The position numbers and the translations under genes are program-made. Under the pieces are notes generated by a model. It was not told where the DNA came from, did not search any database, and saw only the letters and a list, made by a program, of their open reading frames with translations. 27,211 nt of DNA, from NCBI GenBank assembly GCA_041742355.1, contig JBGSIV010000025.1, positions 1 to 27,211 of the forward strand, given 5' to 3'. The stretch's first letter is position 1. Each line of letters begins with the position of its first letter. This stretch comes from Candidatus Zixiibacteriota bacterium. GTDB lineage: Bacteria; Zixibacteria; MSB-5A5; GN15; FEB-12. This document shows, piece by piece, positions 2,767 through 26,846 of the stretch.

Positions 2767-4038
2767 ATGGCACGTCACATACTGATATTTGAGGATGCTC
2801 ACTTCGGCGATTTTGCGCCGATCAGCCTGACCCGTCCGGTCTACCTGATGCGGGCCGGGATATTTCCGCAATATGAACGGATTCGGCGGGGACTGCGAGC
2901 GGACCGTATGACCTTTATGTGCCGCAATCAGATCGCGCCGCTTCTGGCCGAGCAGATCCCGGACTTCCCGGTGAATATTATCAAGCGGGGGCAGGACGAC
3001 CTGCTGTTGGTGAATGGTCGGATTCGGGAGTTCGGCGATCTGGTTGAGCGGCTGGCCGACGAGCGTTATACGCGGGGGTTCGAGTCGAATGGGGAGCTGG
3101 TGGCGATGCTGCTCAAGGCGGAGACGCTCGAGGCGCTGCCAGCGATAGCTCCAGGTGAGGACTACCTGAAGTTCTTTGGGGCCGAGAATGAGAGTGTGCC
3201 CCGGCACAAGACGTCGGCGACGCTCTATCGGTACCCCTGGGAATTTGTCGAGGACATTGACCGGTCGATCGGGCGGGATTTCCGCGTGCTCGAGCCGGAG
3301 TTCGGGGTGCCGAACGGAGTGAAAGTGCACGATGGGGCGTTTTTCGTCAATGAGAACAACGTCTTCCTCGGTGACGGCGTGACGGTTCTACCGGGGGCGG
3401 TTATCGATGCCTCGGCGGGGCCGGTGTATATCGGCGCCAATACCCGGGTTGAACCGCACGCGGCGATCGCGGGGCCGACGTATGTCGGGCCAAACTCCGT
3501 GGTGCTGGCCGGGAAGATCACGGCATCGTCGATCGGCCACACCTGCCGGGTCGGCGGGGAGGTGGAGGAGTCGGTTTTTCAGGCGTACGTGAACAAGTAC
3601 CACGCGGGGTTTATCGGGCACAGCTACGTGGGGCAGTGGGTGAATTTCGGGGCGATGACCACGAACTCGGACCTGAAGAACAACTACTCGACGATCCGGG
3701 TGTCGGTCAACGGGGAGTCGATCGATACGGGTTCGATCAAGGTGGGGTCGCTGATCGGGGACCACACCAAATTCGGCATAGGGACACTTCTCAATACAGG
3801 GATTTCGGTAGGGGTGTGCTGTAATATTTTCGGCGGTTCGCTGGTGGCCGACAAGGATGTGCCGTCGTTTCGGTGGGGGACGACCGGGGAGTGGACCGAT
3901 TATCGGTGCGATAAGGCGGTAGAGACAGCGCAGCGGACGACCGAAAGAAGAAATGTGACACTCTCCGACCGTGAAATCGGGGTGTTGCGCGACATCGCGT
4001 CCGGCGAGCGGTCGGAAGAGGGTGTGCTGTCGCTGTGA
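2767..4038 (+). CDS. GlmU-like putative sugar nucleotidyltransferase with hexapeptide (LbH) repeats
   Basis: N-terminal FED...F.PISLTRPVY.MRAG. C-terminal LbH repeats, NKYHAGFIGHSYVGQWVNFGAMTTNSDLKNNY and KVGSLIGDHTK. Confidence 0.85.
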   Translation: MARHILIFEDAHFGDFAPISLTRPVYLMRAGIFPQYERIRRGLRADRMTFMCRNQIAPLLAEQIPDFPVNIIKRGQDDLLLVNGRIREFGDLVERLADERYTRGFESNGELVAMLLKAETLEALPAIAPGEDYLKFFGAENESVPRHKTSATLYRYPWEFVEDIDRSIGRDFRVLEPEFGVPNGVKVHDGAFFVNENNVFLGDGVTVLPGAVIDASAGPVYIGANTRVEPHAAIAGPTYVGPNSVVLAGKITASSIGHTCRVGGEVEESVFQAYVNKYHAGFIGHSYVGQWVNFGAMTTNSDLKNNYSTIRVSVNGESIDTGSIKVGSLIGDHTKFGIGTLLNTGISVGVCCNIFGGSLVADKDVPSFRWGTTGEWTDYRCDKAVETAQRTTERRNVTLSDREIGVLRDIASGERSEEGVLSL

Positions 4039-4051
4039 TCCGGCAGGCTGA

Positions 4052-4080
4052 TTGACAAGCAGGAGGGCGAGCAATATACT
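4052..4080 (+). promoter_or_regulatory. sigma70 promoter for galT-glgA
   Basis: TTGACA-N17-TATACT, 27 nt upstream of the galT ATG. Confidence 0.8.
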
Positions 4081-4107
4081 GCGGTCCTCAAGATGGAGTA
4101 AGGTGAC

Positions 4108-5154
4108 ATGCCTGAACTACGAAAAGATCCGGTGATCGGACGGTGGGTGATTATCGCCACGGAACGGGGGAAACGTCCGAGTTCATTTCAATCGGTATCG
4201 GCGCGAGGGCCGGCGCGGCTGTGTCCGTTCTGCCCGGGGGCGGAGACGAATACGCCTCGGGAGATCCTTGCGTACCGTGACACCCACAGCGAGCCGAACA
4301 AGCCGGGGTGGACGTTGCGGGTGTTCCCGAACAAATATCCGGCGCTGGTGATCGAGGGATCCCTGACGCGCGAGCCGCACGGTGTGTACGACAAGATGCA
4401 GGGGATCGGGGCGCACGAGGTGATTGTGGAGACGCCGGATCACGGGCGCGACATGGACAGCATGACAGAGAAGGAACTGCGGGATGTGTTCTGGGCGTAC
4501 CGGGAGCGGATGCTCGACCTGGAACGGGACCGTCGGTTCCGGTATATCCTCATATTCAAGAACCACGGCCAGGCGGCCGGGGCGTCATTAGAGCACTCGC
4601 ACAGCCAGCTAATCGCTACGCCGATCGTGCCGAAGAAGGTGCAGGAGGAGATCGACGGTTCGCGGAAGTACTATGATTTCAAGGAGCGGTGTGTTTTCTG
4701 CGATATCGTGCGCCAGGAGATCATGGATCAAGAACGGATAGTCACGGATTTCGATTCGTTCATCACGATCCAGCCGTTCGCGGCGCGATTCCCGTTCGAG
4801 ACGTGGCTGCTGCCGAAGACACACCAGTCGAGCTACCTGGAGATGAGCGATTCGGATTTCTGGATTCTGGCCCGTGCGGTCAAGGATATCCTCACGCGGT
4901 TGAAGCGGGCGCTCAACGATCCGCCGTTCAATTTCGTGCTGCACACGCGACCGATCTCGTCGGAACACCACCAGTACTACCACTGGCATTTTGAGATCAT
5001 ACCGAAACTGACGCGCGTGGCCGGTTTTGAATGGGGATCCGGCTTCTACATCAACCCCACCACCCCTGAAGAGGCGGCCGCGTACCTTCGCCAGATCGAT
5101 GTCAACGCGGCGCCGGAACCTGTCCACACTGAAGTGCGGGAGAAGGAAGCCTGA
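4108..5154 (+). CDS. galT: GalT-family hexose-1-phosphate nucleotidyltransferase (galactose-1-P uridylyltransferase / ADP-glucose phosphorylase type)
   Basis: MPELRKDP..GRWVIIATERGKRP, CPFCPG, NKYPAL, GAHEVIVE, GASLEHSHSQ, HWHFEIIP and AGFEWGSG. Confidence 0.92.
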   Translation: MPELRKDPVIGRWVIIATERGKRPSSFQSVSARGPARLCPFCPGAETNTPREILAYRDTHSEPNKPGWTLRVFPNKYPALVIEGSLTREPHGVYDKMQGIGAHEVIVETPDHGRDMDSMTEKELRDVFWAYRERMLDLERDRRFRYILIFKNHGQAAGASLEHSHSQLIATPIVPKKVQEEIDGSRKYYDFKERCVFCDIVRQEIMDQERIVTDFDSFITIQPFAARFPFETWLLPKTHQSSYLEMSDSDFWILARAVKDILTRLKRALNDPPFNFVLHTRPISSEHHQYYHWHFEIIPKLTRVAGFEWGSGFYINPTTPEEAAAYLRQIDVNAAPEPVHTEVREKEA

Positions 5155-5156
5155 GT

Positions 5157-6614
5157 ATGAAGGTATGTCTGGTGGGACCGGAGATGGTCCCGTTTGCGAA
5201 GACCGGAGGTCTGGGCGACGTGGTCGGGGCGCTGCCGAAGGCGCTAGGCCGGCTGGGCCACGAGGTGGCCGTGTTCGTGCCGCTGTACCGTGAGATTGAT
5301 TTCGGCGTGCATCGGGTGCATGCAGTCGACATCAACCTCACGGTGCCGGTGGACGGGCAGCTGCAGCCGGTGTCGGTGCGGGCGGTGCGCCAGAAGAAGC
5401 ACAGCGTGGATGTCTACTTTGTCGGCAACAAGCAGTATTTCGACCGGGACGGGTTCTACCTCGATCCGCTGACGGGGGTCGACCACGATGACAACGACGA
5501 ACGATTCCAGTTTTTCAACCGGGCGGTGCTCGAGCTGCTCAAGGCGATCGATTTTCGTCCGGACGTGATTCACCTGCACGACTGGCAGACGGCGCTCATC
5601 CCGGTGTATCTGCGGACGTTTTACGGGGCGGATCCGTTCTTTGCCCATACGAAGACGGTGCTGACGATTCACAACCTGGCCTACCAGGGGCAGTTCCCGG
5701 CGGAGAAGTTTTCGAAGCTGGGGTTGCCGCCGGAGTGGTTTGCGCCGGCGACAGGGGCGTTCGAGTTCTGGGGGAAAGTGAACTACCTGAAGGCGGGGAT
5801 AGTGTCCGCGGACAGGATCACCACGGTGTCGCGGCAGTACGCGAAAGAGATTCAGACGCCGGAATTCGGGGCGGGACTCGACGGCGTGTTGCAGTCGCGG
5901 GCGCGGGATGTTTTCGGTATCATCAACGGGGTTGATTACACTGTCTGGTCTCCCTCGCGGGACAAGAAGATCCGGTACACCTACCACCCGGCGAATCTGT
6001 CCGGCAAGCGGATGAATAAGGTGGAGCTTTTGAATCGGGCGGGGATGCCGATTCGGGACAACGCCCCGTTGATCGGGATCATCTCGCGGCTGGTCGACCA
6101 GAAGGGGTGGGATCTGATCGCGGAAGCGGCGGACGAGATCTTTGCGATGAACGTGCAGCTGGTGGTGCTGGGAACCGGGGAACCTAGGTACCATGAACTG
6201 CTCAACAGCCTGCAGCAGAAGTATCCGGACCGGTGCCGGGCGTATCTGACGTTCGACGACAACCTTGCGCACATGATCGAGGCCTCGGCGGACATGTTCC
6301 TGATGCCGTCGCAGTTCGAGCCGTGCGGCCTGAACCAGATGTACTCGCTGAAATACGGGACGGTGCCGATTGTCCGCCGCGTGGGTGGTCTGGCCGACAC
6401 GGTGATCGATTACAACGAGTCGACGTGTGAGGGGACGGGGTTCGTGTTCGAGGAGTACAGTGCGGAGGCGATGCTCGCGGCGATTCGGCGGGCGGTGCGG
6501 CTGTTCGATCGGAAGCGGGCGTGGACGGGCGTCATGAAGGCGGGGATGAAGCAGGATTTCTCCTGGCAGTACACGGCCGAGCAGTACGCGGAGCTGTTTG
6601 CGCAGATCCAGTGA
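5157..6614 (+). CDS. glgA: Glycogen synthase (GT5)
   Basis: PFAKTGGLGDV, HLHDWQT, TIHNLAYQG, SRLVDQKG, MPSQFEPCGLNQMYSLKYGTVP and VGGLADTV. Confidence 0.96.
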   Translation: MKVCLVGPEMVPFAKTGGLGDVVGALPKALGRLGHEVAVFVPLYREIDFGVHRVHAVDINLTVPVDGQLQPVSVRAVRQKKHSVDVYFVGNKQYFDRDGFYLDPLTGVDHDDNDERFQFFNRAVLELLKAIDFRPDVIHLHDWQTALIPVYLRTFYGADPFFAHTKTVLTIHNLAYQGQFPAEKFSKLGLPPEWFAPATGAFEFWGKVNYLKAGIVSADRITTVSRQYAKEIQTPEFGAGLDGVLQSRARDVFGIINGVDYTVWSPSRDKKIRYTYHPANLSGKRMNKVELLNRAGMPIRDNAPLIGIISRLVDQKGWDLIAEAADEIFAMNVQLVVLGTGEPRYHELLNSLQQKYPDRCRAYLTFDDNLAHMIEASADMFLMPSQFEPCGLNQMYSLKYGTVPIVRRVGGLADTVIDYNESTCEGTGFVFEEYSAEAMLAAIRRAVRLFDRKRAWTGVMKAGMKQDFSWQYTAEQYAELFAQIQ

Positions 6615-11924: not shown

Positions 11925-14345
11925 ATGTCCAAAGTAACTTCACGGTCGTGGCTGGCGGTGTGCCTGTTGGGGCTGGGGTTGGGGGGATCAGTCGAGGCAA
12001 CGATTCACACGGTCAATGTCGGCAATTTCTTCTTCAACCCGGTCAACACGCAGGTGATGCCGGGGGACACGGTCCGTTGGATGTGGGTGGGAGGTTCGCA
12101 TTCGACTACGGCCGACGGATCGTCACCCAAGTTCTGGGATTCGGGTGTGATGGGTTCGGGGTCGTACGATGTCGTGTTTCTGGTGTCCGATGGTCCGGGG
12201 CCGTTCCCGTACCATTGCTCGGTACATCCGATGATGCAGGATACGATTTTCTGGGCGCCGGGGGTGTTCAACGCCCGGATCAATCCGATGAGTCTTCCGG
12301 GGACGGAGCAATTCGACGTGGAGGTGGCCCAGAGTGACGCCTCGATGACCGATGTTACCGCGCTGTGGACGGAGATGACCAATCCCGGCTTTTCGCCCTC
12401 GAGAGTCGGGTGGGGCTGGTCAATGGCCGCCGGAAGCCCGGGCACATGGACTCATATGATAAAGCCGCTGCCGGGGGCTGGGCTCACCGACGAATGGCAT
12501 CCGAGCATTTCATCTCTACTTACCGGCACATACATGACGGCCACGGCGACCTATTCATTTCCGCCGTATACTTCCAATTCCGCCGTGGTTATGACACCAG
12601 TTACCGGTACCGGGGGCACCTGGCTGCCGGCGACTCCCCTTATGACGGGGACGGCCGGGGTCAACTGGATGGACTATCCGGTGGTGCGGGTCGACGATCA
12701 CCCGACCAACCCGCCGCAGTTTGTCAATACGAGCCACTTTGTGTGGACCGAATTTATTGAAGGCGGCGATCTCGACGCGGATGGAGACGGAAACATGTAT
12801 AACGATCCGGCCGACGGCTGTCGTCTGTGGTACACGTTCTCCAATCCTCCGGGGGGCCCAGGACCGTTTCCGTGGCCGGGCGTTGGTCCCAACACGGTAA
12901 TCTGGGCCGGTCCGGTGATGGCTGGTCCCGGCGCCCACATAATGCAGCGTCCCTCGATCGACATTGTCGGGCCGGTGGGTACGCCGGCGATGCCGTCCGG
13001 GTCGATTTACACCGCATGGTATGACCCCGGTATGGCCATTGTCTTTATTGATGCGTCCAATCTCATGTTTGGCATCCCGTTTGGCGCTCTGACGGGGGGC
13101 GCGGGACCGTCGCCAGTGGCTCCATGTATCGCGCTGCCGCAGGTTCTCAACGGGGGAATCAAAGCGGGAACAACAGTGGCGGTGGCGGTCGACAATGGGC
13201 CGAACTGCCCCGGTAATGTCTATGTGGCCTGGGCCGATATGGTGACCGGCGATGCGGATATCATGTTTGCCCGGAGCACCGACGGCGGGATGACCTGGGC
13301 GCCGTTCGTGCGTGTCAACTCTGACCCGGCGGGCAACGGATTGGACCAGTGGCTGCCGTCGATGTCTGTGGACGATGTCAGCGGTGAAATAACGATTATC
13401 TTCAAAGACCGCCGGAACGATCCGGCCAATTTCCTGGCGGAAACCTGGGTGGCGCGGTCAAAGGATTGCGGCTTGACCTGGTCCGATTGCGTGCTGTCGG
13501 ATCCCGGGCCGCTGCCGCCTTTCAGCTCGTATGCAACTTCGGCTCTGTGGGTCGGGGATTACCTCGGGATCGATGCCGCCAAGGCGGGGTGGGCGTACGG
13601 TTTCAATGACACTCGGAACGGCGGCGATAACGACGTCTTTTTCGACAAATACTGCCTGCCTGATCTTGATGGCGACGGGTATGACCAATCGGTCGACTGT
13701 GACGATACGAATCCGTCGATCAACCCCGGGGCGTTCGACATACCGGGGGACGGGATCGACCAAAACTGTGACGGGGTCGACGCGGTCATGTGTTACACGG
13801 ATGCCGACGGAGACGGCTACGGCAGTAATGGGGACCCGGGGACTTACACACCGGGCGGCGTTTGCCCGCCGGGGAAGGTGACGATCCAGGGGGATTGCCA
13901 TGACGGTGCGGCGGGAATCAACCCCGGTGCGACAGAAATCTGCAACGGTATAGACGAGGACTGCGACGGGTTCATCGACGACAACCCAGTCGGAGCGCCG
14001 ACCTGGTACCGTGACTCGGATGGCGACGGAGCCGGGGATCCGGCGGCGGATTCGGTGGCGTGCACGATGCCGGGAGGATATGTTGCCAACTTCGACGACT
14101 GCGACGATACAGATCCGACGGTGCCGCCGTGCGGCTGCTGCACACTCCGCGGCGACGCCAACGGTGACAGCAACCTGAATGTGTCGGATCTGACGTTCAT
14201 GGTCAACTACCTGTTCAAAGGAGGGGCCGCGCCCGCCTGTCTCGATCATGCCGATGTGAACAACGACGGCAACGTGAATGTCGCCGATCTGACGTTCATG
14301 GTCAACTATCTGTTCAAAGGAGGACCGGCGCCGGTGCCTTGTTGA
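11925..14345 (+). CDS. Large secreted multidomain protein: cupredoxin + BNR/Asp-box domain + Asp/Cys-rich metal-binding repeats + C-terminal dockerin-like domain
   Basis: GGAGG RBS and signal peptide. F.P....V.PGDTVRW..SHSTT..YHCSVHPMM gives type-1 Cu ligands. STDGGMTW and SKDCGLTW are Asp-boxes. DCDD.NP.INPGA..I..DGIDQNCDG repeats. Twin D.N.D...NV.DLTFMVNYLFKGG.AP. Confidence 0.88.
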   Translation: MSKVTSRSWLAVCLLGLGLGGSVEATIHTVNVGNFFFNPVNTQVMPGDTVRWMWVGGSHSTTADGSSPKFWDSGVMGSGSYDVVFLVSDGPGPFPYHCSVHPMMQDTIFWAPGVFNARINPMSLPGTEQFDVEVAQSDASMTDVTALWTEMTNPGFSPSRVGWGWSMAAGSPGTWTHMIKPLPGAGLTDEWHPSISSLLTGTYMTATATYSFPPYTSNSAVVMTPVTGTGGTWLPATPLMTGTAGVNWMDYPVVRVDDHPTNPPQFVNTSHFVWTEFIEGGDLDADGDGNMYNDPADGCRLWYTFSNPPGGPGPFPWPGVGPNTVIWAGPVMAGPGAHIMQRPSIDIVGPVGTPAMPSGSIYTAWYDPGMAIVFIDASNLMFGIPFGALTGGAGPSPVAPCIALPQVLNGGIKAGTTVAVAVDNGPNCPGNVYVAWADMVTGDADIMFARSTDGGMTWAPFVRVNSDPAGNGLDQWLPSMSVDDVSGEITIIFKDRRNDPANFLAETWVARSKDCGLTWSDCVLSDPGPLPPFSSYATSALWVGDYLGIDAAKAGWAYGFNDTRNGGDNDVFFDKYCLPDLDGDGYDQSVDCDDTNPSINPGAFDIPGDGIDQNCDGVDAVMCYTDADGDGYGSNGDPGTYTPGGVCPPGKVTIQGDCHDGAAGINPGATEICNGIDEDCDGFIDDNPVGAPTWYRDSDGDGAGDPAADSVACTMPGGYVANFDDCDDTDPTVPPCGCCTLRGDANGDSNLNVSDLTFMVNYLFKGGAAPACLDHADVNNDGNVNVADLTFMVNYLFKGGPAPVPC
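14151..14342 (+). repeat. Tandem dockerin-like repeat (two copies, 99-nt period)
   Basis: GATCTGACGTTCATGGTCAACTA(C/T)CTGTTCAAAGGAGG occurs twice. Confidence 0.85.
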
Positions 14346-18030: not shown

Positions 18031-20538
18031 TTGGGGGTGTGTGTGCCTTCACCCTTGGTGACGATCGGCATTACCTGCTACAATGACGCGCGATATGTCA
18101 CGCGTTGTCTTGAATCGGTCTTCGCACAAACTCATGATAATCTTGAAGTCATCGTTGTGGACGATTGCTCCACGGACGACAGTGTTGCCCACATTCAAAA
18201 GTATGGCGATCGGGTACGCCTGATCGAGCATGTTCGGAATTCGGGCGGATACATGACGGGGCGCAAAGAAGTGATCGCAGCGGCGACGGGGGAGTACGTG
18301 TGTCACCTCGATGCGGATGATTTCCTGCAGCCTGATTTTGTCGAGAGGCATGTCGCGGCGTTTGCGGCCGATCAGCAGCTGGACTGGGTGGCGGGGAATC
18401 TGATCATTGTCGACGCTGAGGGAAAGCAGACAGATCGCTGGGACTACCGGGACTTTCCCACGGATCCCCTCAATGGGTTGCGACGGGGGTTCCTTACCGC
18501 GTCGGTGCCGGTGCCGAAGAACGGGTTGTTTTCGCTGCGGTTCCTGCGGGAGAACGGGCTTGATTGGTACCAGTTGCCGCGGACGGCGAACGGGTCGGAT
18601 GCGTTCACGTGCGTAAAGTACCTTGAGTGCAATCCGAAGATCAGCCTCATTCCCTACTACGGTTTGAACTACCGGATCCATGGGACCAACCGGTGCGGCA
18701 ACCCGGTCGAGCGGATAAAAATGACGGTGGATTTGAAGGAGTACTACGTCGAACGGTACAGCATCATGGTGTACCTGCCGCATCCGGATCTCCTCCGGCA
18801 CCAATTCGGGAGCGAGGAGTACCTGGCGGTGAAGTACTACCTGCTGGCGGTGGAGTTTTACCGGACGATGCGGGAGTTCCGTGTGCCGGAGCAGTTCCGG
18901 TCGCCGCGGACGGACCGTGAGATTCAGGCGAATCTGGGGCTGTTTCATGAGCCGATCGTGAGGTATGCGGAACGGTCGCTGTCCAATTCGGGACGGTACG
19001 AGCGAGAGCTGACGGCGGTTCTTCTGGCGATCGGCCACAGTCCGTCGGGGCGCAAGGCGCCGTCGGTTCAGGGGAAGCCCGTCACGGAGGAAGGCGGGAA
19101 TCGGGTGCCGGATTGGCAGCGGGTGGTGTCGGAAGCACCGATGTCCCTGGAGGCGCATAACGGCCTGGCGGAGGCTCACTATCAGGCCGGGGAACTGGAG
19201 CAGGCGCAGAGGCATGCCTCGGCGGCGATGCAGATTGCGCCGCATGATCCGCATACGCTCAACACGGCGGGGGTGGTAGCGTTCTCTTCGGGAATGCATG
19301 CCGAGGCGGAAGTTTTGTTCAAACGGGCGCTGGCCGGGGATCCGGAGTTTGCCGACGCGCGATACAATCTGTGCGAATTGTGGGGACAGGTGCTGCACCG
19401 GTTCGTGCCGGATGCGCAGCGACGCCGGGATTTGCTCAAGGCAGTGCGGTGGTTGTCGGAGTACGCGCCGGATCCATCGCGTTTGGCCCTGCTGCGGGAG
19501 AGTACGCAGCTTCGGGAAGACCTCCTGGCCGCATACAAGAACCGCTGGCAGCGGATGGGGCTTCGGGTGCTGCTGCACAGGCCGTCGAATGGCGCGCTGA
19601 AGTACCTGATGGACAGCTGGGCCGAGGTGCTCACCTACGCCGGGGTGCAGACGCGTCTGATCAACTGGGGAGAACGGACCGCGCCGGTATTCGAGCAGTT
19701 CCGCCCGGATGTGTTTCTGACGGTGGCGGATCCGAACTACATGGCGCAGCTGGATTACGAATACATTATGCAGTATCGAAAGAACACGGGCCTGCTCATC
19801 GGGCATATAACGACGTTCGAGCACGAGTTTCCGTCCTGCGATTTCCTCGTGACGTTCCACTTCGATCCGAGCCGGAATGCGAGGATGCAGGTGACCGAGA
19901 CGCCGCTCGTGTCGCTGCCGTTTGCGGCCAATCCGCTGCAGCACTACATGCGGCCGGGCGTGGAAGTGTGGGACTACTTCTTCGTGGGGACCAATTCGCC
20001 GCGCAAGGTGGCGTGCACGAAGGCGTACCTGCTGCCGCTCGTGCGGCGGTATTCGGGCGTGCTGGCGGGGGCGAACTGGGATATGGGGCTGGGAGAGCTT
20101 TCGGTGCAGGAAGCGGCGGTGCTGTACAATTTCGCGCGGATCTACCCGAATTACAGCACGCCCAGGCATTTCGATGAGTACAACGAAGTCAACGAACGGA
20201 CGTTCATCATACCGGCCTGCGGTGGATTCGAACTAATGGATAATCCGGTGGCGATAAGGGAGCTATTCACCGGGGAAGAACTGGCGATCGCCGATTCCCC
20301 CGCGCAGTACCGTGAGATGTTCGATCACTACCTTCGCCATCCCGAGGAGCGGCTGCCAATAGTGCGGGCAGGAATGCGCCGGGTGTACCGGGAGTACACG
20401 CTGTTCCACGTGCTGGAGCGGCTGGTATCGCAGATAGGCAGTCTTCGCACGCAGGGTGAGCCGGCACCGGTGTGGCAGAATGAGCCGGTGATGACGGCCC
20501 GGAGCCGGGGGATTACCTGGGCTGACCGCTTCATTTAG
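18031..20538 (+). CDS. Multidomain glycosyltransferase: GT2 + TPR + CgeB-like (Glyco_trans_1_2) domain
   Basis: LVTIGITCYN, LEVIVVDDCSTD and LDADD (GT2); central TPR helices; FFVGTN, VNERTF.IPACGGF.L.D and HTY/YTL-like end (CgeB-like). Exact start uncertain (18031-18043). Confidence 0.85.
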   Translation: MGVCVPSPLVTIGITCYNDARYVTRCLESVFAQTHDNLEVIVVDDCSTDDSVAHIQKYGDRVRLIEHVRNSGGYMTGRKEVIAAATGEYVCHLDADDFLQPDFVERHVAAFAADQQLDWVAGNLIIVDAEGKQTDRWDYRDFPTDPLNGLRRGFLTASVPVPKNGLFSLRFLRENGLDWYQLPRTANGSDAFTCVKYLECNPKISLIPYYGLNYRIHGTNRCGNPVERIKMTVDLKEYYVERYSIMVYLPHPDLLRHQFGSEEYLAVKYYLLAVEFYRTMREFRVPEQFRSPRTDREIQANLGLFHEPIVRYAERSLSNSGRYERELTAVLLAIGHSPSGRKAPSVQGKPVTEEGGNRVPDWQRVVSEAPMSLEAHNGLAEAHYQAGELEQAQRHASAAMQIAPHDPHTLNTAGVVAFSSGMHAEAEVLFKRALAGDPEFADARYNLCELWGQVLHRFVPDAQRRRDLLKAVRWLSEYAPDPSRLALLRESTQLREDLLAAYKNRWQRMGLRVLLHRPSNGALKYLMDSWAEVLTYAGVQTRLINWGERTAPVFEQFRPDVFLTVADPNYMAQLDYEYIMQYRKNTGLLIGHITTFEHEFPSCDFLVTFHFDPSRNARMQVTETPLVSLPFAANPLQHYMRPGVEVWDYFFVGTNSPRKVACTKAYLLPLVRRYSGVLAGANWDMGLGELSVQEAAVLYNFARIYPNYSTPRHFDEYNEVNERTFIIPACGGFELMDNPVAIRELFTGEELAIADSPAQYREMFDHYLRHPEERLPIVRAGMRRVYREYTLFHVLERLVSQIGSLRTQGEPAPVWQNEPVMTARSRGITWADRFI

Positions 20539-21280
20539 TCGCGACGATGACCAACCGGCTGGCTTTGAGGTCGCACGGCGCGCCATCGAGGGTGCCGAAG
20601 GCATGTACTTCGGAGAATCCGGCTTCGCGGAGTAAGTCGCCGAGGTCGGCGGCGCCGTAGAGCCGGAGGTTGAACTCCCACTCGTAGCGTTCCGAGCCGC
20701 GGATGATTATCCAACGGTTGTGAATTCGTGTGAATGAGTCAATCAACTCTCGTTCGTCCAGGACGAGCAGTCCGCCGCTTTCCATCCAATCACGAGCCTG
20801 AAATTCACGCAGCAGCCACTCCCGGTGGATCGTGTCGATCAGTAGGCGTCCGCCCGGTTTTAGAGAAGCGTGGAGGTTACGCAGGACGGTGAGGTCGTCG
20901 TCGGGATCGTCAAAATAGCCGAAGGACGTAAACATATTGATGGCGGCGTCGAAGGTGTTCGGGCGGCAAAACGCGCGCATGTCGGATTGGACGATGTCGA
21001 TGGCGAGGGAGGCTCCGGAGGCGTGGGTGCGCAATTCGTCGAGGAGCGGGACAGTCCGGTCGACGGCGGTGACGCGGAAACCATGCTGCGCGAGGGGCAG
21101 GGCGAAGCGCCCGGGGCCGCAGCAGAGATCGAGGACGGCGGCGGGAGGATCAATGTTGAGGAGCGAACGCAGCTTTTCGATGCTGCTGGCGGCGACATCC
21201 CACCGTTCGGGCGCGAACATGAAGGGGCGGGTGATCTCCCAGAACGCCACGTCTTCGAACCAATCCTTAGTCTCGCCCAT
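20531..21280 (-). CDS. Class I SAM-dependent methyltransferase (paralog 2)
   Basis: AGGAG RBS and ATG 21280; VLDLCCGPGR, DMR.F and TSFGYF; 249 aa. Confidence 0.92.
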   Translation of the reverse strand: MGETKDWFEDVAFWEITRPFMFAPERWDVAASSIEKLRSLLNIDPPAAVLDLCCGPGRFALPLAQHGFRVTAVDRTVPLLDELRTHASGASLAIDIVQSDMRAFCRPNTFDAAINMFTSFGYFDDPDDDLTVLRNLHASLKPGGRLLIDTIHREWLLREFQARDWMESGGLLVLDERELIDSFTRIHNRWIIIRGSERYEWEFNLRLYGAADLGDLLREAGFSEVHAFGTLDGAPCDLKASRLVIVATK

Positions 21281-21324
21281 ATGGTCTCCTAAGTCTATAT
21301 GGTTTTGGTCAGGCCCCAGCTGCG

Positions 21325-22074
21325 TTACTTCGTTGCGACGACGTACAGGCGACTGAACTTGAGATCGCACGGCGCACCGTCGAGGTTGCCCATTGCCGTG
21401 GCCTCGGAGAACCCGACGTTCCGGAGCAGCGCACACAGATCCCCTGCGCCGTAGAGCCTTAAGTCGAATTCCCATTCACGTCTCATTTGGCCGGAGATAA
21501 GGATCCAGTGGTTGTGAAGCCGGGAGAACGAGTCGATGAACTTGCGATCACACAGCAGGAACCGATCGTCGCGCTGGTGCCAATCGCGGGCCTGGAACGT
21601 GTGTATGAGCCATTCGCGGGGGGTTATCTCCATGAGCAACCGTCCACCTGATTTGAGAGAAGCGAAGAGATTTTGCAGGACCTTGATGTCGTCCTGGGGA
21701 TTATCGAAATAGCCAAAGGACGTCAGCATATTGAGAGCGACATCGAAAGCGCAGGGACGGCAGAAGTCGCGCATGTCAGATTCGACGATTTCGATGTCCA
21801 GCGCGGCATCTGTGGCGCGCGTCCGCAGTTCACTCAGGAAGCACCGGGTGCGGTCGACGGCGGTGACGCGATAGCCCTCTGCGGCGAGGGGAATGGCGTA
21901 GCGGCCCGGACCGCAGCACAGGTCGAGGATCGCGGTGGACGGGTCGAGTCTAAGGAGGGTGCGGAGCTTGTCGATGTTGCTGGTGGCCGCTTCCCACAAT
22001 TCCGGAGTGAATAGTATGGGTTGGGTCAATTCCCAGAGGGATTCGTCCTGGAACCATTCTTGAGATTCGGACAT
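21325..22074 (-). CDS. Class I SAM-dependent methyltransferase (paralog 1)
   Basis: AAGGGAG RBS; ILDLCCGPGR and TSFGYF; 249 aa, about 62% identical to paralog 2 by hand count. Confidence 0.92.
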   Translation of the reverse strand: MSESQEWFQDESLWELTQPILFTPELWEAATSNIDKLRTLLRLDPSTAILDLCCGPGRYAIPLAAEGYRVTAVDRTRCFLSELRTRATDAALDIEIVESDMRDFCRPCAFDVALNMLTSFGYFDNPQDDIKVLQNLFASLKSGGRLLMEITPREWLIHTFQARDWHQRDDRFLLCDRKFIDSFSRLHNHWILISGQMRREWEFDLRLYGAGDLCALLRNVGFSEATAMGNLDGAPCDLKFSRLYVVATK

Positions 22075-22113
22075 GAGATCTCCCTTCTGCCTGCGATTGG
22101 GGCGGTGGGCCGG

Positions 22114-23160
22114 TCAGTTACCGCTGTCGCCACAATCTACGCGGACATGGGGGACGAACGCAAGGCAATTGGGGAAGGAGGCGTTGAGGTTGCCGGTCGT
22201 GGCAAAAGCGACGCCGCGGCAGGCGCCGTGGCAATTGGCGAGGTTCTCGCAGTCGCGGCATTGTCCCTCGATTTGGTGGCATGAGTACTCGGCGACGGCC
22301 ATCATAGCCGGATCGTTCCAGATCTCCTCAATGGAGCGCTCGTTCACGTTGCCGACGCGGAAGCCGGGGCCCATGGGGGCAGTGCAGGGGTAGACGTCGC
22401 CGGTGCCGGTGATATAGAGCTGACGGATGCCGGCGATGCATTCGTGAAAGTCGTAGGAAGGTGGGAGGGGGCCGAAGGCGGGGTCGAAGAGGATCATGGG
22501 GGATTCGATATCGAGGCACTCTTCGATGAAGGCTTTGAGTTCGGGCATGCGGCCGTCGAACTGGAGGCGGGCGCGAACCTCGTCGTTGTCGCCGAAGCCC
22601 CACGGGACGAAGCCGCAGAAGCGGACGGATTTAGCACCATAGGAGCGGGCCAGCTCGATGAATGGCCGGGCATCGGGGAGGGTCGCGGCGCCGAGGAGCA
22701 TGGCCAGGTGGAGAGGGATGTCGCAGGAGCGGGTGGCCTCGATGCCCTGGATTACGAGGTCGAATTCGCGGGGGCTGCCGCCCCGGATGAGTTTGAAGAG
22801 TTCGGGGGTGGTGGCGTCGAGGCTGATTTGGATGGCTCTGATGCCGGCCTTTTTCAGGCTTTCGGCACGGCTCCGGGTGAGCGGGATGCCGTTGGTGGTA
22901 ATAGCCGATTGAATACCGCGATCGAGGGCATACGAGATGAGGTGGTCGAGGTCTTTGCGCAGGAGGGGTTCGCCGCCGGTCCAGCCGATGCGTTCGGCGC
23001 CCAGTTGGGCAAGAGAGTCGATGATGCGCTCGCAGGCGGCAGTGGACAGCTCGCCCCGGTTGACCTTCCCCGCGGAGCTGAAGCAGTGCGGGCAGGAGAG
23101 GTTGCAGCGGTCGGTGATGCCCCAGCCAACGAGGGCGGGTTTACGGTCGGTCAGGTCCAT
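22114..23160 (-). CDS. Radical SAM/SPASM protein without N-terminal extension (PqqE/NirJ/MftC-like architecture)
   Basis: W.IT.RCNLSCPHC, TGGEPLLR, TTNG and QISLD. SPASM C.AG...YI...GDVYPC ... CRDC....CHGACR...C. Start at ATG 23160, or GTG 23196 inside the hairpin. Confidence 0.92.
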   Translation of the reverse strand: MDLTDRKPALVGWGITDRCNLSCPHCFSSAGKVNRGELSTAACERIIDSLAQLGAERIGWTGGEPLLRKDLDHLISYALDRGIQSAITTNGIPLTRSRAESLKKAGIRAIQISLDATTPELFKLIRGGSPREFDLVIQGIEATRSCDIPLHLAMLLGAATLPDARPFIELARSYGAKSVRFCGFVPWGFGDNDEVRARLQFDGRMPELKAFIEECLDIESPMILFDPAFGPLPPSYDFHECIAGIRQLYITGTGDVYPCTAPMGPGFRVGNVNERSIEEIWNDPAMMAVAEYSCHQIEGQCRDCENLANCHGACRGVAFATTGNLNASFPNCLAFVPHVRVDCGDSGN

Positions 23161-23187
23161 ATGTGTGCGGGAGGCTTTCAGGAGTAT

Positions 23188-23222
23188 GCTGCACACCGGG
23201 TGTATTCCGCCCGGTGTGCAGC
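23188..23222 (-). promoter_or_regulatory. Strong stem-loop downstream of the precursor peptide gene
   Basis: Perfect 13-bp GCTGCACACCGGG/CCCGGTGTGCAGC stem with no U-tract. Confidence 0.8.
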
Positions 23223-23241
23223 GATAGTCATATCATTCGGC

Positions 23242-23328
23242 TCACCACGGCGGCAGAATGTAGTACAACATCTTGTAACACGGACACGGCTTGTTACGCT
23301 GGTCTTGTGGCTTCTCGATGAACTTCAT
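23242..23328 (-). CDS. Putative RiPP precursor peptide, 28 aa: MKFIEKPQDQRNKPCPCYKMLYYILPPW
   Basis: Perfect GGAGGTGA SD; ATGA overlap with the stop of the upstream radical SAM gene; charged leader plus Cys/Tyr/Trp-rich C-terminus. Confidence 0.85.
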   Translation of the reverse strand: MKFIEKPQDQRNKPCPCYKMLYYILPPW

Positions 23329-24653
23329 GGATTCACCTCCTTTCGGTTCTCTAAGAGATACCGTAGTTTCAACATGTCTCCCAGATTGTATTTCCAGGAG
23401 TTGCACGATCCTGTGAGGTTCGAATTTTTCTTTATGCCCTGGATGGGACAGCCGCCCATGCAGAGCGGGAGTACGTCGCAGCCGATGCAACCGGGTTTAT
23501 CGAACGCGTCCCATGCCATGTAGCGGTCGAGATTGGCCTGCTGGCGCGAGGTGATTTGATCGGAATGCAGGCTGCCGACGGACTTATCGGGATTCAGCGA
23601 AAGCTCTTCCCAGCACTTGAAGAGGAGTCCGTTGGGGGCGACAACCCAGGCGTTGGCGGAGTCGGCGCCACAGTGGCCGGCGGGGGCCAGCGTGGGGTAG
23701 TCGATGCAGTTATGACCGGAATCGAGCAGGGCCTGATAGAGGGAGACCTGGGCCGAGGCGAACTGTTCGCCGGAGAAACATCGACCGACGATGTCGGCGC
23801 AGACGCCGTCGGTCCCCATGACCGGGGCGAAGTAGACGCCCAGTCGGGAGAGGAGGCCGGCGCGGTCGAGTTCGGCCATGACATCACCCGCCTGGGAGAG
23901 GCTGTCGTGGTCGACGTTGATGCGGACGGTGATGTGCAGGAAGTCAACGGCCTCGCGCAGGTTATCGATGATCCGGTGGAAGGTCCCTTCGCCGTTGCGA
24001 AGGGGGCGGCGCTGGTCGTGAATGGCCGGCGGGCCGTCGAGGGTCACCTGGGTATCGACGATTCCGACTGAAGCGAGCTGCTCCGCGGCTTTTCGATCGA
24101 GGCAGTAGCCATTTGTTACGATGCCGGTCGGGTCCATCTTAACACCCTGGGCGGAGGCGAACTCGGCCAGGCGCCGCTGGATGCGGAGCACAGTCGGGAG
24201 GCACAGGGTGGGTTCGCCGCCGAACCACGTAACCATGAGTCCGGAAGCCCCGATCAGCCGTTTCTGGGCGAAGTCGAGGAGGGCCCGTTCGGTGTCGGCA
24301 TCCATGGATTTGCCGCCGGTGTTTTCGTAGCAGTAGCGGCAGGCGAAATTGCAGGCGAGGGTGGGCGCGATCGTCAGAAACAACGGGGCGTCGTGAAAGC
24401 GGCGCAGCCGGTTCTGGGCTTTCATCTGTACCAGTTCCTCGGCTTCATCCGCAATGAGGAATTTGCCGTAAGTCAGGCCCTCGACATATTCCTTTTCGGT
24501 TGCGTTGGCGGCGGATTCGGGGTGGTCGAGGAGGCGCCGGATGACAGGGATTTGGTCGCAGTCGATTTCGACGAGCGCTGCGCTCCGGCTATTGAACAGG
24601 AGGCGGCTCGAAGTTGGCAGATCAACCCACCGGTTGTAGCGCGATGCTTTCAT
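23325..24653 (-). CDS. Radical SAM/SPASM peptide maturase with N-terminal RRE-like extension
   Basis: MKASRYN....LLFNSRS N-terminal domain of ~90 aa; CNFACRYC, WFGGEP, VTNG, QVTLDG...H...R and RINVD; SPASM CGA...NG.LFKCW ... CIGC..LPLCMGGCP...C. Confidence 0.93.
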   Translation of the reverse strand: MKASRYNRWVDLPTSSRLLFNSRSAALVEIDCDQIPVIRRLLDHPESAANATEKEYVEGLTYGKFLIADEAEELVQMKAQNRLRRFHDAPLFLTIAPTLACNFACRYCYENTGGKSMDADTERALLDFAQKRLIGASGLMVTWFGGEPTLCLPTVLRIQRRLAEFASAQGVKMDPTGIVTNGYCLDRKAAEQLASVGIVDTQVTLDGPPAIHDQRRPLRNGEGTFHRIIDNLREAVDFLHITVRINVDHDSLSQAGDVMAELDRAGLLSRLGVYFAPVMGTDGVCADIVGRCFSGEQFASAQVSLYQALLDSGHNCIDYPTLAPAGHCGADSANAWVVAPNGLLFKCWEELSLNPDKSVGSLHSDQITSRQQANLDRYMAWDAFDKPGCIGCDVLPLCMGGCPIQGIKKNSNLTGSCNSWKYNLGDMLKLRYLLENRKEVNP

Positions 24654-24748
24654 GTGGCGGTTCCAGTTCACCCATCTCAGAGATGCACCGGAAGGTGATC
24701 TCTCAGCCCGCAACGTCGATCTCCCGGGGTAGGACGATCAACATTGCC

Positions 24749-24777
24749 AATATGGAGAGATCGAGGCGGTGAGTCAA
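24749..24777 (-). promoter_or_regulatory. sigma70-like promoter of the radical SAM operon
   Basis: TTGACT-N17-CATATT, about 95 nt upstream of ATG 24653. Confidence 0.6.
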
Positions 24778-24833
24778 GGAGAATTCGGTCGACAAAGAGT
24801 GTGCGATGGAAATGAGTTGGACGGGCGGGCGTG

Positions 24834-24865
24834 AAAGAAGGGCAGGATCCGCAGGGATCCTGCCC
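24834..24865 (-). terminator. Intrinsic terminator of the S9 peptidase gene
   Basis: GGGCAGGATCC-CTGC-GGATCCTGCCC followed by TTCTTT. Confidence 0.8.
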
Positions 24866-24893
24866 GAGAGAGAAATCTGGTCGCAGACGAGGT

Positions 24894-26846
24894 TCAGCCC
24901 TCTTTGCGAGCGGGGGCGGGAGTGTTCTTCTTCAGGTGTTTGGTGAAGAACTCCACCTGGCGGCGGTACTCCTCGATAACGTTGACGCGTTTGCTGGCGC
25001 CGTGGCCCTCATCGGGGAAGATGAGGGAGTCGACGATACCGCCGGATTTCTGGATGGCCGCGATGATCTGTCGGGCCTCGCTCACCGGCACACGCGGGTC
25101 GTTCTCGCCGTGGACAACGAGGAGGGGTGTCTTTATGAGGTGAGCCTTGTGGATCGGCGAGATTTCATGAAGGAAGGCTTCGTCGGACAGCGGGCCGTAT
25201 TCCGCCTCGCGCAGGGCACGCCGGTAGGCGGCGGTGTTCAGGAGGAAGGTCTTGAAGTTAGCGATGCCGACGCCATCGATGGCGGCGCCGAACATGTCGG
25301 GGTACTCGGTGATCATGCCGAGGACGACGTAGCCGCCGTAGGAAGCCCCGCGGATGCCGACCATGCCCTGTTGCGTGTAGCCGTTGGCGATGAGCCACTC
25401 GACGCCGGCCTTGTAGTCCATGAGGGAGTGTTTCCGGTTCTTGTAGTCGTCCATCGCGAGGTACTTGCGCCCGTAACCGTCGGAGCCCCTGATGTTCGGG
25501 GCGAAGACGCCGAAGCCGTTGAGGAGGAAGTACTGGATGTTACGCTGGAAATAGGGGCGGGTCTGCCCCTCCGGGCCGCCGTGGGCGTCGACGATGAACG
25601 GGAGCGGTTCGCCCGGCTTGTAGTCGGGGGGGAGGTAGATGAAGGCGGGGATTTCCAGACCGTCGAAGCTTTTGTAGTGAATGAGCTGCGGCTCTCGGAA
25701 GAGCTGGCGGTCGATACCGGCGTAGATGGAGAACGTCAGTTGGTCGAGCTGTTCGTTGGTGGGATTCCAACGCCAGACATCGGGGGCCAGGGTGGGGGAG
25801 TTGAAGGAGATGAGGCAGCTGCCCGTGATGTCGAAGAAGCCGCCGGTAATGATGCCGTCGACCGGGGGACTTTTCAGGTCGCGGCCGGTTTCGATTTCAC
25901 GCAGCCGGATTCGGCCGTAACCGTCCTCATTGATGAGGGCGGCGAGGAAGCGGAAGTCCTGCGAGATGCGGAGGCCGTCGACCGGCCACTTCGGATCGGC
26001 CCATTCCGCGGGCGCCCATTGGATTTCGGGGGAGTCGACGGTCATTTTCGCCAGGCGGGGGATGCCGTCTTCGTTGTTGTTGCAAACCATCCAGATGGTC
26101 ATGTTGTCGGGCATGAGGACGGGGCCATCGTAAAGGACGCCGCCGGTGTCCGAGGTGATCTTACGGGCCTCGCGGGAGGCGAGGTCGAGCAGGTAGAGGT
26201 CGTTGGCGACATTTGAGGTGAGATGGTACATGAGCAGGAGGGTACCATCCTGGGAGACATTGAGCGGACCGTTGTACCCCTCCATGCCGAAAATCTTTTC
26301 GTAGTTGCCGGTAGCAATGTCCATCTGGTAAACGAGGAAGTCCTTGCCGTTTTCCTCGTTGGACCGGAAATAGATCTGGCGGTTGTCGGGGGACCAGACG
26401 ACGGAAGCGTACTGGACCTTCTGGCCTTCGGTGAGGCGGACGACACGGCCGGTGCGGGTGTCCATGAGGTGGAGGTCGGACTGCTCCGAGCCGCCGACGG
26501 AAGCGCCGACGATGGCCATGGCGCCGTTGGGGGAGAGTTCGAAGAAGTCGACGCCGTCTTCGAAGGTCGTGAGCTGGTAAGGCCATCCTTCGGGGGTGAG
26601 GCGGTAGATCTGACTGGCGCCGGACATGCTGGAGGTGAAATAGGCGTCGCGGCCGTCCCAGCTCAGGCCGGCGGCCGTACATCCGCCGATCTGGAGGAAG
26701 GTGGCGATATCGGGGACATATTGGCCCTGGTTGAGGAGCGATTTGACAGTGGGCGGCTGGCTGTCGGAGACCGCCTGGGAGGTGCAGGAGGCCAGCAGGG
26801 CGGCGCAGCAGAGGGCTGTGCCGACAAAGACAAGAGGCAGGCGCAT
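24894..26846 (-). CDS. S9 family (prolyl oligopeptidase/acylaminoacyl peptidase-like) lipoprotein
   Basis: AGGAG RBS, LASC lipobox, beta-propeller repeats, HGGPE, GASYGGY (Ser), HGENDPRV (Asp) and DEGHG (His). Confidence 0.93.
   Translation of the reverse strand: MRLPLVFVGTALCCAALLASCTSQAVSDSQPPTVKSLLNQGQYVPDIATFLQIGGCTAAGLSWDGRDAYFTSSMSGASQIYRLTPEGWPYQLTTFEDGVDFFELSPNGAMAIVGASVGGSEQSDLHLMDTRTGRVVRLTEGQKVQYASVVWSPDNRQIYFRSNEENGKDFLVYQMDIATGNYEKIFGMEGYNGPLNVSQDGTLLLMYHLTSNVANDLYLLDLASREARKITSDTGGVLYDGPVLMPDNMTIWMVCNNNEDGIPRLAKMTVDSPEIQWAPAEWADPKWPVDGLRISQDFRFLAALINEDGYGRIRLREIETGRDLKSPPVDGIITGGFFDITGSCLISFNSPTLAPDVWRWNPTNEQLDQLTFSIYAGIDRQLFREPQLIHYKSFDGLEIPAFIYLPPDYKPGEPLPFIVDAHGGPEGQTRPYFQRNIQYFLLNGFGVFAPNIRGSDGYGRKYLAMDDYKNRKHSLMDYKAGVEWLIANGYTQQGMVGIRGASYGGYVVLGMITEYPDMFGAAIDGVGIANFKTFLLNTAAYRRALREAEYGPLSDEAFLHEISPIHKAHLIKTPLLVVHGENDPRVPVSEARQIIAAIQKSGGIVDSLIFPDEGHGASKRVNVIEEYRRQVEFFTKHLKKNTPAPARKEG

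Follow-up and report, generated by a model that had tools for sequence, protein, structure and literature searches.

Positions 20531-24777 of a contig from a Candidatus Zixiibacteriota bacterium (JBGSIV010000025.1, positions 1 to 27,211; this whole stretch of 27,211 nucleotides is called the window) raise the question of which genes in a tightly spaced minus-strand row belong to one pathway. The row comprises, in this order, a gene for a radical S-adenosylmethionine (SAM) enzyme (rSAM1), a 28-codon open reading frame (ORF), a hairpin, a gene for a second radical SAM enzyme (rSAM2) and two methyltransferase genes (MT1 and MT2). A previous annotation of this DNA, here called the sequence-only reading, had taken the entire row for an unrecognised pathway to a ribosomally synthesised and post-translationally modified peptide (RiPP). 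Its five genes, the small ORF, the ribosome-binding site (RBS) and the hairpin were all confirmed in place on the minus strand. In our analysis a smaller unit emerged. We consider it rather probable (about 0.7) that window positions 22114-24777 form a self-contained three-gene RiPP cassette, consisting of rSAM1, precursor, hairpin and rSAM2, which works in the way proposed below. MT1 and MT2 are regarded as older, unrelated neighbours of this cassette.

Linkage of the genes was determined in 285 genomes of the window's phylum representing 130 genera, with orthologue cut-offs of E <= 1e-90 for rSAM1 and E <= 1e-60 for rSAM2. Orthologues of rSAM1 were present in 46 genomes (16%) and 22 genera, and those of rSAM2 in 48 genomes, including all 46 with rSAM1. 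When tandem duplicates of rSAM1, which occur at two loci (genomes G035 and G038), were counted once, 50 rSAM1 loci were obtained. At 48 of them rSAM2 was located on the same contig and strand within approximately 1.7 kb, and for the remaining two the contigs, 2104 and 2728 bases long, break off at this point; the predicted link between the two enzymes thus held. A candidate precursor gene was found at 46 of the 50 loci, as had been expected for a substrate of rSAM1. Thirty-seven candidates were recovered by profile or tblastn search and nine by a weaker filter (short ORF, at least two cysteines, purine-rich RBS) or by eye only. At each of the four loci lacking a precursor a contig end lies within 500 nt of rSAM1. 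Locus L093, beyond the 50, has both enzymes and no precursor candidate by profile or filter. In the first ten loci, taken from a species-level genome collection, an rSAM2 homologue directly followed rSAM1 in all ten; the peptide was found by tblastn in eight, by reading the DNA in the case of the divergent copy of L001, and by profile in L002, where it is encoded upstream of rSAM1. A metagenome scan returned six loci. In the data examined, the cassette is confined to the window's phylum. Records titled Zixibacteria, GN15 or Ignavibacteria (ten loci) all fall within this phylum, most of them in the same class; submitter titles are therefore an unsafe taxonomic guide.

The 28-codon ORF (23242-23328, minus strand) starts with a codon that overlaps the rSAM1 stop codon by four bases and is preceded, at a distance of 5 nt, by a strong purine-rich RBS. 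In the encoded peptide, roughly the first 13 residues make up the leader; the core behind it has a pair of cysteines spaced one residue apart, an aromatic residue and a hydrophobic tail that contains proline and terminates with tryptophan. Related ORFs, coding for 27-45 amino acids, adjoin rSAM1 orthologues in relatives (profile E-values of 1e-10 to 1e-19 at the first loci). Comparison of nine orthologous 30-codon precursors (36 pairs) revealed 307 synonymous versus 119 non-synonymous codon differences, and 329 of the 514 base differences fell on third codon positions. Judged by these substitutions, the precursor gene shows purifying selection. Because related ORFs adjoin the rSAM1 orthologues and codon differences are mostly synonymous, the small ORF lies far beyond chance. 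The same strong RBS was present on all 26 precursor genes listed in the codon analysis.

An alignment of 24 precursors displayed seven well-conserved N-terminal residues, about six variable residues and then the first cysteine, the sole invariant residue of the core. The second cysteine follows 1, 3, 5 or about 10 residues later, and the peptides end in a hydrophobic stretch, rich in aromatic residues and proline, in which one isoleucine is nearly invariant. Throughout one large clade the core is almost identical. The precursor gene is located between the enzyme genes in the window and at most loci, and elsewhere precedes rSAM1 or follows rSAM2. Some loci (G038, G106, G182 and G186) encode two to four different precursors. 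These arrays extend over L084 2938-4429 (G106), L074 1811-2516 (G186), L082 3086-3693 (G182) and L024 6196-6865 (G038); where three or four precursors follow one another, every one is preceded by a strong RBS of its own, and the number and spacing of cysteines vary widely.

The hairpin just after the precursor gene (23188-23222) has two perfectly paired arms of 13 bp (23188-23200 and 23210-23222) and a 9-nt loop. Its calculated folding energy is -32.1 kcal/mol (z = -3.6), and none of 200 shuffled sequences was as stable. A T-run is absent, and the terminator scan did not call this hairpin. Within 80 nt downstream of the precursor gene a stem of at least eight uninterrupted pairs was found for 38 of the 44 precursor genes examined, and in 32 of these 44 regions z was <= -2 against mononucleotide shuffles. 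A promoter-like site with 9 of 12 consensus matches lies upstream of rSAM1 (24749-24777, minus strand), where a promoter for the unit had been predicted. The signal is weak: three such sites were found in the region compared with 1.2 expected from shuffles, and the consensus may not be that of the host.

The rSAM1 gene (23325-24653, minus strand) encodes 442 amino acids when counted from ATG; a longer ORF started by TTG extends to 24713. The protein scored 54.6 bits against Pfam Radical_SAM and 50.4 bits against the SPASM domain model TIGR04085 of NCBIfam, above the cut-off of 27. Across 41 homologues the cysteines of the CX3CX2C motif (C101, C105 and C108) and seven SPASM cysteines (C328, C347, C389, C392, C398, C402 and C417) are invariant. 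Of the full-length curated models, TIGR04334 (score 295, cut-off 600) and TIGR04463 (266, cut-off 525) ranked highest, followed by CefB (188, cut-off 600), geopeptide (177, cut-off 400), PapB (108, cut-off 340) and the SCIFF maturase (63, cut-off 425). Every NCBIfam model of a named maturase family thus stayed below its cut-off; the closest ones (TIGR04334, TIGR04463, CefB, geopeptide and PapB) describe maturases for cysteine-rich substrates. In the AlphaFold model of rSAM1 (predicted local distance difference test, pLDDT, 88.9) residues 7-87, with pLDDT above 87, form three strands followed by three helices, which is the layout of a RiPP recognition element (RRE). The top Foldseek match, over the full length, was CteB (5why/5wgg); anSME, TigE (8vpo) and SuiB came next. 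These models predict that rSAM1 is a CteB-like radical SAM/SPASM enzyme carrying an RRE-like domain at its N-terminus, in line with what the sequence-only reading had proposed for the N-terminal extension.

Binding of the leader by rSAM1, which had likewise been postulated, is also predicted. When rSAM1 was folded together with the window peptide, both being supplied with their own alignments, the complex model scored 0.76, and the best of three controls scored 0.00. In calibration, 116 of 157 solved complexes attained the mark applied, and so did two of 215 mismatched pairs; this calibration is only rough here, given that own alignments were used and the calibration set contains no proteins under 30 residues. 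At least 49% of contacts agreed between runs, and partner pLDDT was at least 50. The confident interface comprises peptide residues 1-11 and 13 on one side and, on the other, residues 18-38 and 56-80 of rSAM1, i.e. the third RRE strand and its helices, plus residues 319-325 and 431-435. The model is consistent with a division of the peptide into some 13 leader and some 15 core residues.

The rSAM2 gene (22114-23160, minus strand) codes for 348 amino acids with Pfam scores of 87.7 bits for Radical_SAM and 48.5 bits for SPASM. Its best NCBIfam models, MftC (151.5, cut-off 265), AhbD and PqqE (139, cut-off 381), all scored below cut-off. The closest solved relative is PqqE (6c8v; sequence E-value 2.2e-22, Foldseek E-value 5.4e-18). 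As the radical SAM motif begins at residue 19, there is no room for an N-terminal RRE in this enzyme.

On this basis we propose the following course of events. The precursor would be translated from its strong RBS, and the hairpin probably acts by stabilising the transcript or ending part of it, which would leave more message for the precursor than for what lies downstream. The N-terminal 11-13 residues of the precursor are predicted to dock as a strand on the RRE of rSAM1. The enzyme, which resembles CteB and CrpC, would then act on the cysteine core, most likely by forming sulfur-to-carbon thioether crosslinks; this chemistry is suggested because the first cysteine is the only invariant residue of the core and the nearest models and structures are those of thioether enzymes. 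Finally, rSAM2 would modify this peptide once more and in another way, for example by a C-C or C-O crosslink at an aromatic residue, perhaps the one next to the second cysteine. MT1 and MT2 would play no part.

Several points weigh against this proposal. The cassette is known here from genes and predicted structures alone, and we infer the role of rSAM2 from its constant adjacency alone. As rSAM1 stays under every curated cut-off, its chemistry could differ; the core is rich in aliphatic residues, the type of substrate used in the cyclopropyl chemistry of TigE, and one precursor in a multi-precursor locus has only a single cysteine. Leader-RRE complexes of related enzymes have already been solved (CteB and SuiB with peptides), which is why the high score of the complex model may mirror these structures and is read as likeness, not proof. 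Neither a leader peptidase nor an exporter is conserved around the cassette at the loci compared, which leaves the route to the product incomplete. Finally, only 39 nt, free of any terminator, lie between rSAM2 and MT1; the two may be co-transcribed, and hence a recruited role of the methyltransferase in the window strain is possible.

The genome of the window contains a second, related two-radical-SAM cassette on contig C227 (10315-13315; L028 6315-9315). Its rSAM1-like and rSAM2-like enzymes are 32% and 27% identical to those of the window, and two short precursors are encoded upstream. Precursors of this type were read in four loci (L028, L020, L021 and L022); they share a conserved leader unlike that of the window precursor, and their cysteine-bearing core closes with a conserved lysine/proline-leucine-tyrosine-glycine motif; no curated model reaches cut-off. 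Matches of the C227 type (30-35% class), mostly with an adjacent SPASM gene, were found in 16 of 41 relatives. A broader interpretation, which we put forward tentatively, is that both cassettes belong to an undescribed superfamily of minimal two-radical-SAM cassettes in the window's phylum, with two leader types (window and C227) and a new, doubly crosslinked scaffold as product. A CteB-like enzyme with an RRE and a PqqE-like enzyme lacking one would act in turn on a precursor of 27-45 amino acids and install a thioether and a second link without a dedicated protease or exporter, and the RRE of the first enzyme may serve both.

Somewhat less likely, though deserving attention, is that rSAM1 performs no thioether chemistry. 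The cysteines would then serve only to hold the substrate at an auxiliary cluster, and the enzyme would form a cyclopropyl group, a cyclophane or another C-C link on aliphatic or aromatic side chains. TigE, which is reported to make cyclopropyl groups on aliphatic residues (PMC10878394), is among the top fold matches of rSAM1. Moreover, isoleucine, leucine, proline and aromatic residues abound in the cores, which include the nearly invariant isoleucine, and no cut-off of a curated thioether family was reached. However, the same report describes a glycine-tyrosine-tryptophan motif that is unique to cyclopropyl synthases and provides a tyrosyl ligand to auxiliary cluster I, and this motif was not seen in rSAM1 on inspection by eye. 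In addition, no core residue other than the first cysteine is invariant in the 24 precursors, and the nearest curated models all concern cysteine-rich substrates.

The sequence-only reading had also mentioned a cofactor-like product as an aside, i.e. an intracellular peptide-derived redox cofactor in the manner of pyrroloquinoline quinone (PQQ) and mycofactocin rather than a secreted peptide. This is possible and is not favoured by us; we hold it to be unlikely. It would agree with the similarity of rSAM2 to PqqE and MftC, with the lack of a conserved exporter or peptidase nearby, and with the near identity of the core within one large clade. However, the distribution is patchy not only across the phylum (46/285 genomes, 22/130 genera) but also within the window's own genus, in which two of four genomes have the cassette. 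These two cassettes occupy different genomic sites and have different core types: that of G002 lies on another contig than the methyltransferase of this genome, is only 45% identical and has its precursor upstream. Several loci with two to four precursors of different cores, and the two with duplicated rSAM1, point in the same direction. Furthermore, counterparts of MftB/PqqD, MftD/E and PqqB/C are absent from the locus, and rSAM2 stays below the MftC and PqqE cut-offs. Genes flanking the cassette vary by lineage. Such a distribution is more easily reconciled with an accessory, exchangeable cassette than with a cofactor pathway of housekeeping type.

Several genes near cassettes were considered as accessory functions and rejected. 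Genes for a PfkB kinase and a CDP-alcohol phosphatidyltransferase recur, but on the opposite strand and in one clade only. The S9 peptidase encoded next to the window cassette was rejected as leader peptidase, as it stays beside the methyltransferases in genomes without a cassette. Two ATP-binding cassette (ABC) exporter genes are located just upstream of one cassette on the same strand (L030 9697-13358); this arrangement was seen in G040 only, and they were not counted as part of the cassette. Another cassette is directly followed by an integrase-core (rve) transposase gene (L027 11017-12201; G017), which does not recur at other loci.

The five-gene pathway, with methylation of the crosslinked peptide by MT1 and MT2, fared worse still, and we regard it as improbable. 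MT1 (21325-22074) is a class I SAM-dependent methyltransferase of 249 amino acids matching Pfam Methyltransf_25, and MT2 (20531-21277; 248 amino acids) is its tandem paralogue with 62% identity. A 314-amino-acid MT2 ORF reaching 21475 is unsupported, since residues 1-249 of MT1 align to 20534-21280 at this identity. In favour of a pathway role, both genes are on the strand of the cassette with gaps of 39 nt (rSAM2-MT1) and 47 nt (MT1-MT2), no terminator was called between rSAM2 and MT1, and their top NCBIfam match is a RiPP enzyme, the daptide methyltransferase (NF041820; 62.9 bits for MT1 and 70.9 bits for MT2). These scores are far under the cut-off of 175, however, and gene order in relatives speaks against it. 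Orthologues of MT1 with 38-51% identity are present in many relatives. In G001, G002 and G003, all of the same genus, a glycosyltransferase, one or two methyltransferases and an S9 peptidase are adjacent with no cassette between them, and G001 has the methyltransferase but lacks an rSAM1 orthologue (best E-value 1e-5, 97% completeness). Four genomes that hold both (G002, G027, G035 and G038) have methyltransferase and cassette on separate contigs or about 500 kb apart. No tblastn match to the methyltransferases was obtained at other cassette loci (L001-L037 and 40 further loci, about 5 kb each), nor was there a match to the glycosyltransferase or the S9 peptidase at the other cassette loci examined. 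Comparing the neighbourhoods of rSAM1 homologues, which the sequence-only reading had suggested, thus kept the small ORF and rSAM2 together with rSAM1 and separated the methyltransferases from them; only the latter outcome was one it had itself named as speaking against its proposal. Synteny therefore largely refutes the claim that MT1 and MT2 are tailoring enzymes.

How the cassette came to lie beside the methyltransferase genes can be read most simply as insertion. A terminator-like hairpin at 24865-24840 closes the upstream S9 peptidase gene (24894-26846), and comparison of gene orders suggests that the cassette was inserted between this terminator and the methyltransferase genes in the lineage of the window. 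Loss from the other three genomes of the genus is a possible alternative. Flanking direct repeats were not found around the window cassette; the intergenic DNA is not alignable with that of the same-genus genomes. Contigs assembled from run X1 cover the junctions concerned: one bridges MT1 and rSAM2 (21359-22366) and another extends from rSAM2 to the S9 gene (22343-25136). Run X1 is possibly the source of the window and so not independent, and the fragments of X2-X4 are too short for more; among the read-derived contigs listed (X1-X4), none has a joint that skips the whole cassette. In the window strain, transcription probably reads through from the cassette into both methyltransferase genes, as the gap between rSAM2 and MT1 is only 39 nt long and contains no terminator.

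As to the older surroundings, the order of glycosyltransferase, methyltransferase(s) and S9 prolyl-oligopeptidase-family lipoprotein is conserved in the genus (window 18031-22074 and 24894-26846; L048-L050). The glycosyltransferase gene, which is convergent and lies downstream of MT2, encodes 835 amino acids with TPR repeats (GT2, TPR and GT1-like parts). The methyltransferases may relate to such surrounding envelope or glycan genes. Farther away, window positions 2767-6614 hold a sugar-nucleotide/glycogen run (nucleotidyl transferase, a galactose-1-phosphate uridylyltransferase-like gene and starch/glycogen synthase) which is syntenic with G002, and positions 11925-14345 encode a protein of 806 amino acids that has a dockerin domain at its C-terminus as well as MopE-like motifs for putative copper binding.

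That the 28-codon ORF has a regulatory role as an upstream ORF, or occurs by chance between unrelated radical SAM genes, can be set aside as highly improbable: it has just 28 codons and no family model annotates it, but its amino acids are conserved while bases differ mainly at third positions, RBS and hairpin accompany it whether it stands before rSAM1, between the enzymes or after rSAM2, some loci have multiple copies with varied cores, and its contact with the RRE is predicted with clean controls.

The three-gene cassette, which we prefer to these alternatives, retains the core of the sequence-only reading. A RiPP-type system is supported, as are an RRE-like domain on rSAM1 and the conservation of precursor and rSAM2 beside it, and, in agreement with the claim of an unrecognised class, no curated family lays claim to any of the three. 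Neither rSAM1 nor rSAM2 reached a full-length family cut-off in Pfam or NCBIfam (June 2026), and no model in Pfam or in the same NCBIfam release matched the precursor peptide. A description of the cassette was not found in the full-text literature, a search whose scope largely excluded subscription journals and supplements. The general kind, a radical SAM/SPASM RiPP, is already known; new are the precursor family, the fixed pairing of a CteB-like RRE enzyme with a PqqE-like enzyme lacking an RRE, and the occurrence in a single phylum.

Radical SAM RiPP families that await characterisation are numerous. Some of the most unusual crosslinks in RiPPs are the work of radical SAM/SPASM enzymes, and new pairings of enzyme and precursor tend to reveal new chemistry. 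To our knowledge, there are no cultured, chemically studied members of the source phylum. The cassette is a compact, easily cloned three-gene set in which two different SPASM enzymes would serve one very short substrate, and its relatives constitute a natural library of cores with cysteine spacings of 1, 3, 5 or about 10 residues. It also offers a clean case for how a SPASM enzyme lacking an RRE finds its substrate, and is a good lead both for experiments and for genome mining. For annotation, the methyltransferases teach that operon-like adjacency can arise when a cassette inserts beside older genes.

Among known systems, mycofactocin biosynthesis (MftA/B/C) shares with the window a short precursor, the lack of an exporter and, with MftC, the top NCBIfam match of rSAM2 (151.5). 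This score is below the cut-off of 265, however, the window precursor ends in tryptophan and not in valine-tyrosine, and the locus has neither the MftB, MftD, MftE and MftF set nor a small RRE gene. PqqE aligns end to end with rSAM2, is its best fold match and likewise has no RRE of its own, so that an RRE would be needed in trans; as in the PqqA-PqqE pair, a short peptide containing a tyrosine would serve as substrate. In contrast to the PQQ pathway (rSAM2 139, cut-off 381), the genes pqqB, pqqC and pqqD are absent from the window, the precursor is unrelated to PqqA, and the RRE of the cassette sits on another radical SAM enzyme, rSAM1. TigE and TvgB resemble rSAM1 in fold (8vpo) and in being RRE-SPASM enzymes for aliphatic-rich cores (PMC10878394), but rSAM1 differs by the motif not seen in it by eye, and a repeat-type precursor is absent.

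The best-scoring curated models of rSAM1, both aligned over the full length, are TIGR04463, which includes CrpC, and TIGR04334, the Clo7bot maturase; with 266 against 525 and 295 against 600, respectively, rSAM1 is a member of neither. CrpC, from methanogens, installs thioether crosslinks on cysteine-rich substrates. These are large cysteine-rich repeat proteins (PMC13692751), compared with the 28-residue peptide of the window. From CteB/SCIFF (thermocellin) and PapB-type ranthipeptide systems the cassette differs in its scores (63 against 425 and 108 against 340), in a much shorter precursor with usually two cysteines, in the constant presence of a second SPASM enzyme, and in that its chemistry is deduced from genes. 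Nevertheless, these maturases have the same single-chain order of RRE, radical SAM and SPASM domains as rSAM1, and CteB is the best fold match of rSAM1; a cysteine-bearing precursor is encoded alongside, and the leader is predicted to lie on the RRE.

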